Assembly (NCBI GenBank): GCA_000165345.1
Contig: CM000432.1
Coordinates: forward strand, 384,001-448,000
Length of the DNA: 64,000 bases
Direction of reading: 5' to 3'
Positions 36,001 through 39,000 of the stretch are shown piece after piece. Position numbers: made by a program. Every line of letters starts with the position of its first letter. Positions within the stretch are counted from its first letter, which is position 1.

Positions 36001-39000
36001 ATAAATGACTATTCCCCACAAAGCCCGCCCAAAACACGTCAACACTAAAAATAATAAAATGCAGTAATTGAAAAAATAATTAGATGAATTAACAGCAAAT
36101 AATTTTTAAATAAGAATAATTAAACAACCTTTTAAATGATTTGCCTTAGTTAATATGTTTTTTATATTCACATAGAGCTAAATGCATTAATTATATTTTA
36201 ATTAATAATTGACGATAGATATTTCTCATTACTTTTATATGGCTTTTGATTATTTTCAATTTTTAAGTCCTTATGTTTACTAAGTTCTTTGTTCTAAAAT
36301 AATCAGAATTTTTTATCTTTAAGTGAATTTTATAATTAGTCATCATCTTTTGTACATCTCCTACACATCAGCATTACCATACATATCATCATTGTAACAA
36401 TTACTCCAAATGCAATAGTAGTGAAAGACAAAGCACTGGGAGTTGCTGCTCCTCCCATTGCTCCTGGAATACCTCCTTGTCCGGGTACCATTCCCACTCC
36501 TTGAGCAGCCATTCCACCAACTGCTGCAGGCGCTCCAGGAGTAGCACCTGCTACCGCTCCAGGAGTAGCGCCTGCTGCCGCTCCAGGAGTAGCACCTGGA
36601 ACAGCTCCTGGAGCAGCAGCTATTGCAGCTCCTGGAGAAGCTGCTGCCATTGGATTTGCTGCAGCTCCAGCAGGACTTGCACCCGCAAGAGGATTAGCAA
36701 TGCCAGGAGTAGTCATTGCAGGGTTAGCAACAAGTGGTGAACCTGTTGCACTTTGGATTCCCGTGGAAACTGCAGAACCTGCAAGACCAAGTAAAAAATT
36801 ACCTAAGCCTCCTTCTTTAAGCCTTTCTTTATATCTTACACATTCTGAATTTCTTGTAATTATTAATAAACATAACGTTATTAACAAAAAGACTGAATTA
36901 TAAGGTTTTTTTAAAGACCGATTTAAAAATGGCATTATTTTCTGTATTAATTCAGTATTTTCAATTCTCCATTAATAATAATCGATTTCCAAGAGTTAAT
37001 ATTACTGTTTTTACCTTTTTTTTAATATATATTAAAATATATCTATCTATATAAATATAAATATTTATGTATTGTTTAGTTTATTATTTTCAGATTAAAT
37101 TTTTGTTGAAACGATTAAAAATGTCATTAAATTATTTATATGAAAAATAAAGTAAATTATTATTTAATTTTAGTGTGCATATTATCAGCTAATTTAATTA
37201 TTTACTTATTTTTTTTAATACAGGGTGCATATTTATTATTTCCAAATTTAAGAAATACTTTTTAGATAGATTTTTGCTTTTAGGTGTTTTGTAATATATA
37301 TTCATATTCAAACAATTAATTTCAATAATTGAAACTTTATAATATTTTAACCAAGAAATATTGTTAAAAAAATATTAACCACTTAAGCCTAAATCTTATA
37401 ATCACACAATATTAATAATTACATATAGAGTAAAATAGAAAAACCAACATACTGGCGCCAAATTTTAAAATTAGTAAAATTGATAAATTAAGTGTAAATC
37501 TAATTAATTTTTTTTAATAATAGATGTTGATTCTAAAGAATTTCTAGTATGATTAATGTTTCTATTAAAACAAAATGTAGAGGATAATACAAAATAGTTT
37601 CCAATAATTAAAGCAATAATGAAGCCAAATATAAATAGTGCGGATTTGAAGGAAATTTGATCAAGGAATGTATTAATAATTTCGCCAATAATTTGAGCTG
37701 TAAAAATAGACTTTCTTGCAATAATTGTGGGATTCTGTGACATACATCTTTCCCATTCAGTACATTTAGATTCCATTGCTGGCACTCTTTGTTCTGGGTG
37801 GCATTTATTATCAACATAGTGTTTTGAACATATATTCATTTCATCCAATATGTTAGTGATTGAAATTTGAATTTTTGATTCAATATCATTTTTAATTACA
37901 AAGATTATTCCAAATATTATATATAATGTGATAAAAACTATTATTATGTTAAAAATTAGCCGAATAAATTCGTGTGTATTATCAATATTCATCCTTTTTA
38001 AAGAATTAATATATGAATTCTGATTCAGACCATGAGAAAGTTGATTAAATGAATTACAATTAAATTTTTCTGAATTGAAATCGTTATTTATAGCTTTGAT
38101 TTCTCTTTTTTTAAGTAAATTTAAACCTTTACAATAATAATTGTTATTACGTGGTGGTAGGGAATTTGATCTATTTGACAAGGTTTGGTTAATTTTATTG
38201 CAATTATTGCCAATATATTTATAATTAATTGTTAAATTTGGCTTTAGATTGTCGTTGTTTTCTTTATTCAATTTTTGATCAATTGGTTTAAAACTATTTA
38301 TAAAATCAGTTGTTTTTATATGCTCTGAATTCTTTTTGTTATCAAAATTTAGAAAGTTATTATCAACTAAGCCATTACTACTTTCATCAATTATCATTGC
38401 ATTGATCATATCTTCATCAAATTTCTCTTCCTTTAAAATTTTCGGACTTAATTTTAACATTAATTTCTGACTTAACTCCTCAATTTCTAACTCTTCTAAT
38501 ACTGTATTACTCATATCAACATTATAATCAATTAAAATAAATATAAACAGCAAATAATTAATATAATTAATGTATTTTTTTTTTAATGCTAAGTTACTTT
38601 GTTTTCTTAATTCTAATAATTGAAAATCATCTTTGATTATTAATATTAAAAGCTTGGCGCCAATTAAATTTCTATAAAATTTACTTGTATTAATACAAGT
38701 ATTTATTTTTATTAATATTGCTGCTTTCTTTGCTTCATGATATTGTTTCTAAAATTTTCCTGGACATCCTTCAGACTAATTTTCTTTGAGTTCGAATCAA
38801 TAGTCTCTGAGTTTTGCAAATTTGCATTTAAAGCATTGGCTTTAATATCAGAATCTAAATGATTGTTTTGCTTTATATTAATCGCTAAATTTGGAATGAA
38901 TACTGTGGGTCTCTTGATCCCAGTTTTAATGTTATTATTCATTTCATTTTCATTGTTATTATTAGCATTTTCAAGTTTGATCAAATCATCTGAATTAATA

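Follow-up and report, generated by a model that had tools for sequence, protein, structure and literature searches.

The 64,000-nucleotide stretch analyzed here (the window; NCBI GenBank assembly GCA_000165345.1, contig CM000432.1, positions 384,001 to 448,000) is part of Cryptosporidium parvum chromosome 4 and harbors, on the minus strand at 36336–36935, an intact open reading frame (ORF) of 199 amino acids (aa) followed by a stop codon. This is cgd4_1670, an annotated and real, but unstudied, orphan membrane-protein gene. Its product is exactly the C. parvum Iowa II protein EAK87908.1 (UniProt Q5CR90; CPATCC_001901), the sequence match sits on a 1.1-Mb chromosome-4 contig, and the public names are ‘uncharacterized protein’, ‘integral membrane protein’ and ‘signal peptide-containing protein’. 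The gene number was set by placing published reverse-transcription PCR (RT-PCR) primers on the window (Mauzy 2012, PMC3305300, Table S2). Primers for cgd4_1590, cgd4_1650 and cgd4_1700 fall at 14.1, 35.0 and 44.8 kb, respectively, which puts the local genes in the order thioredoxin (cgd4_1650), LSM (cgd4_1660), cgd4_1670, Brr6-like (cgd4_1680), myosin (cgd4_1690) and NOG1 (cgd4_1700), in agreement with the Pfam matches on the window and the locus tag of the C. meleagridis gene, cmbei_4001670. cgd4_1670 itself is included neither in the RT-PCR gene set of Mauzy 2012 nor in the supplements of the long non-coding RNA paper, and the literature searched contained no main-text mention of the gene or its accessions, as a marker or otherwise.

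The most conspicuous property of this locus is its base composition. Mean GC content across the 64 kb is 26.4% (standard deviation (SD) 6.7%); between 36450 and 36699, 100-bp windows reach 56–64%, and the richest 200 bp of the entire stretch is found here (36493–36692, 61.5% GC), the next-best window being at 47%. A GC-rich island had been proposed in an earlier reading made from the DNA alone (the sequence-only reading), and this claim was borne out. The same reading held the gene to be compositionally unlike every other in the window, which is true of codon positions 1 and 2 (57% and 61% GC), but not of position 3 (GC3), where the value of 17.5% is ordinary (15–25% in 19 other long ORFs). 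The coding sequence (CDS) is 45% GC, versus 21–37% in the 19 other window ORFs, and Ala, Gly and Pro (A+G+P) together make up 43% of the protein, versus 4–16%. The synonymous codon preferences for Ala, Gly, Pro and Thr, with A- or T-ending codons favored, match those of the 19 neighboring ORFs. The island exists because the protein is rich in Ala, Gly and Pro, encoded by GCN, GGN and CCN codons with A or T in the third position; it is a direct consequence of this coding, not foreign DNA. The features of the locus are collected in Table 1. Elsewhere in the window, the second most GC-rich ORF (37% GC; A+G+P 16%) is cgd4_1590 (13563–20375, plus strand), encoding a 2270-aa SNF2-family ATPase with chromo and bromo domains, which accounts for a broad plateau of 35–39% GC at 14–20 kb.

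Table 1. Features of the cgd4_1670 locus, in window coordinates (AF2, AlphaFold2 model)
Feature	Position	Strand	Basis or remark
CDS of cgd4_1670	36336..36935	-	ORF, exact protein match, primer mapping, codon-position GC, ratio of non-synonymous to synonymous divergence (dN/dS) <1
GC-rich island	36400..36800		100-bp windows 46–64% GC
Signal-peptide-like N-terminus, aa 1–30	36846..36935	-	Kyte–Doolittle 1.84, AF2 helix 3–29
Conserved N-terminal module of the mature protein, aa 31–75	36711..36845	-	Invariant alignment columns
Uncharged Ala/Gly/Pro/Met-rich disordered spacer, aa 68–165	36441..36734	-	Composition, AF2; source of the GC island
24-bp (8-codon) minisatellite, 5 units	36516..36635	-	Tandem Repeats Finder (TRF), units in register, shuffle test
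Transmembrane (TM) helix, aa 170–191, SFTTIAFGVIVTMMICMVMLMC	36363..36428	-	Kyte–Doolittle, AF2 helix 169–198, invariant columns
Cytoplasmic tail RRCTKDDD (8 residues) and stop codon	36336..36362	-	Conservation in orthologues

Homologues of the protein were found in C. hominis, C. tyzzeri, C. meleagridis, C. canis, C. ryanae, C. xiaoi and C. bovis, and in one Logan assembly. When 1.84 billion representatives were searched exhaustively with an HMMER profile, only Cryptosporidium sequences were returned, with C. andersoni cand_028550 (E 9e-20) as the one addition, and the family thus appears to be restricted to this genus. The sequence-only reading had raised the question of orthologues; those found are syntenic and lie in Cryptosporidium only. 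The full order myosin, Brr6-like, cgd4_1670 orthologue, LSM and thioredoxin can be followed in the loci of the parvum group and of C. andersoni. The C. canis and C. bovis loci are shorter and show part of it, and the order holds wherever the flank suffices. A query for paralogues sharing the TM helix and tail, made as a chimera from which the spacer had been deleted, gave one candidate and no matches, a result that was probably limited by the index for so artificial a query.

Divergence was estimated by the Nei–Gojobori method. Compared with C. hominis, the N-terminal module has a dN/dS of 0.08, the TM helix and tail one of 0.11, the spacer one of 0.47 and the whole gene one of 0.29–0.30; dN for the whole gene is 0.030, versus 0.009–0.016 for the neighbors, whose dN/dS is 0.10–0.19. 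In the comparison with C. meleagridis, from which a myosin fragment was left out (frame offset from indels), dN is 0.0445 for cgd4_1670 and 0.040–0.041 for the neighbors. Saturation of dS is reached in the comparisons with C. canis and C. bovis, where dN is only 0–0.09 for the TM helix and 0.04–0.09 for helix and tail together. These values suggest that the spacer is somewhat relaxed while the gene is not under diversifying selection, and that the conserved core of the family consists of the two ends of the protein.

The same data bear on whether the island could be compositionally foreign, that is, horizontally acquired, or a non-coding GC-rich element with a spurious ORF. Its GC content lies 5 SD above the window mean, and two plus-strand ORFs of 87 and 67 aa overlap it; the latter are antisense artefacts. 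This explanation is almost certainly wrong, as GC3 (17.5%) and codon preferences match the host genome, codon-position periodicity is strong, dN/dS is below 1, synteny is kept across the genus, transcripts are detected, and an indel in C. hominis TU502 (see below) keeps the frame. Horizontal gene transfer, which would be expected to leave deviant third-position GC and codon usage and a patchy phyletic distribution, was rejected on the grounds of GC3, codon usage and the genus-wide syntenic orthologues. The island is absent in the C. andersoni orthologue, where GC content peaks at 38.5% over 200 bp and is 32% over the CDS. In practical terms, the conspicuous GC island of C. parvum should be flagged neither as foreign DNA nor as a gp60-like antigen.

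The architecture of the protein was examined by hydropathy, conservation and an AF2 model (helices 3–29, 32–41, 44–64 and 169–198, with residues 65–168 unstructured; mean predicted local distance difference test (pLDDT) 42). The N-terminal signal or anchor of the sequence-only reading is supported by the hydropathy of aa 15–33 (Kyte–Doolittle 1.84), by the first AF2 helix, and by a layout typical of putative signal peptides that is kept in 12 of 12 orthologues despite sequence divergence: a basic n-region (R6, K9, K10), an h-region of 13–14 residues (VFLLITLCLLIIT) and a polar c-region. Cleavage probably takes place near T27/R28, a site assigned by the (−3,−1) rule, which, like the hydropathy by which the signal peptide was judged, is a heuristic rather than a trained predictor. 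The mature protein would then begin with the conserved N-terminal module, in which a charged segment (ECVRYKERLKE) is followed by a Gly/Ala/Ser-rich hydrophobic helix (GGLGNFLLGLAGSAVSTGIQSATGSP..NPA); AF2 places helices at 32–41 and 44–64 with low confidence. Across orthologues, this module (ECVRYKERLKEGGLGNFLLGLAGSAVSTGIQSATGSP..NPA) contains many invariant columns, and it is recognizable in C. andersoni too.

A second TM helix at aa 44–64 is unlikely: the mean hydropathy of 0.94–1.08 is below TM level, and the segment was missed by a 19-residue scan at >1.4. The helix (GGLGNFLLGLAGSAVSTG) resembles glycine-zipper or small-xxx-small helices, such as the PrP hydrophobic core and Pfam Gly-zipper families, in being Gly/Ala/Ser-rich and moderately hydrophobic. 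This likeness is one of motif style only; there was no Pfam Gly-zipper match even at E ≤ 1, and a kinship with the PrP core was rejected, as BLASTP against human PrP gave nothing significant (best E 3.5). Pfam at E ≤ 1 also returned no match for the N-terminal module as a whole, the C. andersoni protein or the C. bovis protein, and a PDB profile search returned noise only (E 0.36–0.84).

At the opposite end, hydropathy peaks at 2.48 (Kyte–Doolittle, aa 173–191). The single C-terminal TM helix of the sequence-only reading therefore stands; its 9-residue tail does not, as RRCTKDDD comprises 8 residues. The C-terminal module is conserved across orthologues (PSALSFTTI.FG..V.MMICMVMLMCRRCTKDDD), with CRRC invariant in 12 of 12 and the following Thr/Ser-Lys-Asp nearly so, C. 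andersoni included. The juxtamembrane residues Cys191 and Cys194 are plausible candidates for palmitoylation. It is very unlikely that the protein is instead attached by a glycosylphosphatidylinositol (GPI) anchor, with the C-terminal hydrophobic stretch serving as a cleaved attachment signal and not as a TM helix. Several Cryptosporidium surface antigens are GPI-anchored, and a stretch of small residues (GGAATPSALS) precedes the hydrophobic segment here; however, a charged tail, RRCTKDDD(DD), comes after this segment, and the TM helix and tail form the most conserved region of the protein (dN 0–0.09 at saturated dS), which would be unexpected for a discarded signal. With the charged tail conserved, the GPI anchor was rejected.

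Met and Cys are unusually frequent in the TM helix (MMICMVMLMC), a feature that is near-invariant across the genus. M182, M186 and M190 form an i,i+4 stripe on one face, and Cys occurs at C185, C191 and C194. The spacer, in addition, contains 4–10% Met in every species, C. andersoni included, versus 1.9% in neighboring ORFs. A Met/Cys-lined TM helix combined with a Met-enriched ectodomain might indicate an oligomerizing single-pass protein with a role in handling a soft metal (Cu+) or in sensing oxidation; such a protein could be a minimal, lineage-specific counterpart of Ctr-like Met-motif systems, the uncharged stalk being just a spacer. We regard this as highly improbable. In Ctr-type copper transporters there are three TM helices, the second carrying MxxxM and the third GxxxG. 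Membership of that type was rejected: cgd4_1670 has a single TM helix, not three, shows only the M182/M186/M190 stripe, and has no Pfam Ctr match. An adhesin of the TRAP/MIC2 type, which would have an acidic tail with a subterminal Trp, was likewise rejected, with no Pfam domain of that type (TSR, vWA) and no Trp in the whole protein.

Between the two ends lies the spacer, which in C. parvum (98 aa) is composed of 35% Ala, 21% Gly and 14% Pro (A+G+P 70%), with 8% Ser+Thr and no charged residue, and for which AF2 predicts no secondary structure (pLDDT ~30). Both this composition and the predicted disorder at 65–168 agree with the low-complexity ectodomain described in the sequence-only reading. 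No charged residue occurs over ~150 residues (42–191), and there is no Lys or Arg from K40 to R192. The mature protein would therefore be essentially invisible to tryptic proteomics, and its absence from proteomes is thus uninformative. Trypsin-based proteomics is the method that has been used to assign C. parvum proteins to compartments, and cgd4_1670 essentially escapes it.

TRF reported a 24-bp period within the spacer at 36524–36641 (4.9 copies, 80% matches, score 124–139). Of the five units (PGAAIAAA, PGAVPGAT, PGAAAGAT, PGAVAGAT and PGAPAAVG), the middle three are good and the outer two degenerate. Self-match at a lag of 24 bp is 80%, a level reached by none of 2000 codon-shuffled spacers (maximum 70% at any lag); the periodicity exceeds what spacer composition alone gives. 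The 24-bp tandem units of the sequence-only reading are thus real, but the array extends over only ~120 bp (36516–36635) and not over the 220 bp that had been proposed (36480–36700), the remainder of the island being aperiodic A/G/P-rich low complexity.

Copy-number polymorphism of this repeat is minimal. C. hominis TU502, represented by two assemblies and compared with four other C. hominis assemblies, has one clean extra 24-bp unit, in frame (207 aa versus 199 aa), and two C. canis isolates differ in length by 7 aa (197 versus 204 aa). The index of the assembly collection lists the exact C. parvum protein for 37 blocks, of which 23 contigs were read, and no C. parvum length variant was found in this collection. 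The 90%-identity cluster contains only the C. parvum protein, a K196R variant (from a Logan run) and the C. tyzzeri protein, with this single substitution being the sole other C. parvum-like variant found. The repeat-length polymorphism anticipated by the sequence-only reading is therefore present in C. hominis TU502 and C. canis, but was not seen within C. parvum in the collection; the repeat is not invariant, and both a signal peptide and a TM helix are predicted. Like the coding variable-number tandem repeat (VNTR) markers used for multilocus typing of Cryptosporidium, the repeat is in frame and differs in copy number between isolates of one species; unlike these, it is very short (~5 units), and the only differences seen were of plus or minus one unit. 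The value of cgd4_1670 as a typing marker is low, since one-unit differences alone were seen, and none within C. parvum.

Over larger distances, the length of the spacer is kept and its sequence is not. In the intestinal species it measures 93–121 aa and contains no charged residue at all, with 23–37% Ala, 21–36% Gly, 6–21% Pro, 4–8% Met and 4–15% Ser+Thr. Each lineage has its own repeat period. In the parvum group it is 24 bp, in C. canis it is 21 bp (GGMxPAx; 4362–4492 of the C. canis locus), and in C. bovis, whose spacer (3512–3751 of the C. bovis locus) is silk-like (GAGAGT/GAGMAG), periods of 27 and 33 bp are found; GAGAGT and GAGMAGA repeats are found in the C. bovis and C. xiaoi spacers. 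The spacer of the gastric species C. andersoni (locus 5001–5522) has no repeat, is not A/G/P-rich (Ala 4%, Gly 10%, Pro 6%) and contains 9 charged residues. The lack of the repeat in C. andersoni, together with the different units in each intestinal lineage, suggests that the A/G/P minisatellite is derived and has been repeatedly rebuilt. This pattern appears to point to independent repeat turnover under a constraint on composition and length, with selection maintaining the composition and approximate length of the spacer rather than its sequence.

Such a constraint raises the question of whether the spacer itself is the working part, as a membrane-anchored, elastin- or silk-like self-associating polypeptide. 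It would then help to build a matrix or tether of structural or elastic character, for instance where parasite and host meet or in oocyst or zoite formation. The uncharged, G/A/P/M-rich segment of 93–121 residues is kept in every intestinal species although the repeats were rebuilt, it is silk-like in C. bovis and C. xiaoi, and expression is 2.7 log2 units higher in the in vivo ‘female’ cells, post-fertilization stages included. Elastin hydrophobic domains, fibroin (GAGAGS) and abductin (Gly/Met repeats) share with cgd4_1670 an uncharged Gly/Ala/Pro(/Met) tandem-repeat composition, and the resemblance is one of composition only. By contrast with these proteins, cgd4_1670 is membrane-anchored, its spacer is only ~100 residues long, and the composition is not kept in C. 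andersoni, whose syntenic protein keeps both end modules around a charged spacer. In addition, Lys cross-linking motifs are absent (the spacer contains no Lys), mRNA levels are modest for a bulk structural protein, and Pfam and PDB searches revealed no homologue among elastins, silks or solved structures. A structural role of this kind for the spacer is therefore unlikely.

Published transcript data show that cgd4_1670 is transcribed in intracellular stages and in the in vivo ‘female’ population, with almost none in oocysts or sporozoites. In the data of Tandel 2019 (PMC6877471), expression (log2 counts per million) is 4.80 in sorted asexual stages, whereas females give 2.96 when cultured and 5.66 in vivo; the gene is among those up in in vivo females, part of which are past fertilization according to the authors, and is not in the sporozoite-up set. 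In Matos 2019 (PMC6536522, Table S3), values are 0–4.4 fragments per kilobase per million (FPKM) in 22 oocyst/sporozoite samples and 50–456 in 12 of 13 intracellular samples. The log2 ratio in that study is −6.68, and gp60 changes in the same direction, cgd4_1670 being ~100-fold lower.

The expression pattern is one of several properties shared with the class of protein proposed by the sequence-only reading, a mucin-like, O-glycosylated surface glycoprotein and rapidly evolving, repeat-polymorphic antigen comparable to gp40/15 (gp60, cgd6_1080), gp900 and the Muc family. As in these glycoproteins (including Muc1-7), a secretory protein with a signal peptide and TM helix has a low-complexity repeat ectodomain whose length varies by units, here by one unit in C. 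hominis and C. canis, and the mRNA, like that of gp60, is found in intracellular stages but not in oocysts. The repeat also contains Thr-Pro contexts (ATPGA), and such contexts generally favor N-acetylgalactosamine (GalNAc) transferases. The differences are nevertheless considerable. The spacer is only 8% Ser+Thr (4–15% across species) and lacks any poly-Ser/Thr tract, and the repeat Thr is not conserved: C. meleagridis has Ala in its place, C. canis lacks it and C. bovis has it in a G-T-G context, a pattern that would argue against a conserved need for dense O-GalNAc. Thus, ‘mucin-like’ is not an apt description.

Nor does the gene behave as a rapidly evolving antigen: the dN/dS values (0.3 for the whole gene, 0.47 for the spacer) indicate purifying selection; divergence from C. 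meleagridis equals that of the neighboring housekeeping genes; and polymorphism is low, the protein being identical wherever C. parvum was found in the collection. The ends are the most conserved parts, rather than there being an exposed variable domain, and a TM anchor with a conserved tail takes the place of the GPI anchor of mucin-type glycoproteins, at ~100-fold less mRNA than gp60. We therefore consider a mucin-like antigen quite improbable, and the earlier functional gloss on this gene is largely unsupported.

The combination of properties described above is, in our view, likely to reflect a small, stalked and tethered type I membrane protein, unique to Cryptosporidium, in which the two conserved ends are the working parts. 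The gene is single-copy and genus-restricted, and its product would adopt an N-out, C-in orientation after removal of a cleavable signal peptide. The head would comprise the short charged segment and the Gly/Ala/Ser-rich hydrophobic helix; the disordered, fully uncharged Ala/Gly/Pro/Met-rich spacer of ~100 residues would follow, and then the near-invariant Met/Cys-rich TM helix, with CRRCTKDDD as its short tail. Both the GC island and the 24-bp minisatellite are by-products of coding this spacer, in which replication slippage may gain and lose repeat units while selection holds composition and approximate length. We infer that the spacer acts as a flexible stalk that would hold the head above the membrane, and that the TM helix and tail may mediate sorting, acylation or assembly. 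As the spacer is free in sequence and the ends are conserved, functional specificity would lie in these two ends.

Several points weigh against this interpretation. The protein itself, its location, its topology and any modification are predictions from sequence and transcript data. The predicted signal peptide rests on hydropathy and the (−3,−1) rule, and may be an uncleaved signal anchor with a hairpin topology; the AF2 model is of low confidence (pLDDT 42), with secondary structure alone being usable. The spacer itself could be the functional part, for example via self-association, and the differences in repeat number between isolates of two species may leave room for some diversifying role. 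Expression is also moderate to low.

More broadly, cgd4_1670 is one among many orphan secretory or membrane proteins unique to Cryptosporidium, distinguished by the contrast between its extremely constrained ends and its freely rebuilt middle. Its expression in intracellular stages, where the host–parasite interface is built, makes it a reasonable, if low-priority, candidate for tagging.

The flanking genes show some features of their own. According to public gene calls, the LSM gene (35490–35837, minus strand; 92 aa over 348 bp) and the thioredoxin gene (34493–35113, plus strand; 105 aa over 621 bp) contain introns, and mechanical ORF lists therefore split both. The intergenic segment between the LSM gene and cgd4_1670 is extremely AT-rich at 35900–35999 (5% GC). 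Two tRNA-Pro genes with anticodons AGG and TGG, ~550 bp apart on opposite strands (3545–3617, minus; 4166–4238, plus), are the sole Rfam matches in the window. Finally, the myosin gene cgd4_1690 (38712–43415, minus strand) contains a 609-bp tandem array at 39440–40048 with nested periods of 180, 63 and 15 bp. This array is polypyrimidine on the plus strand and, on off-frame translation, appears to encode an E/K/R-rich tail repeat; it accounts for a GC skew of −0.685 at 39–40 kb and for two spurious overlapping ORFs, at 39338–40066 on the minus strand and 39391–40167 on the plus strand.

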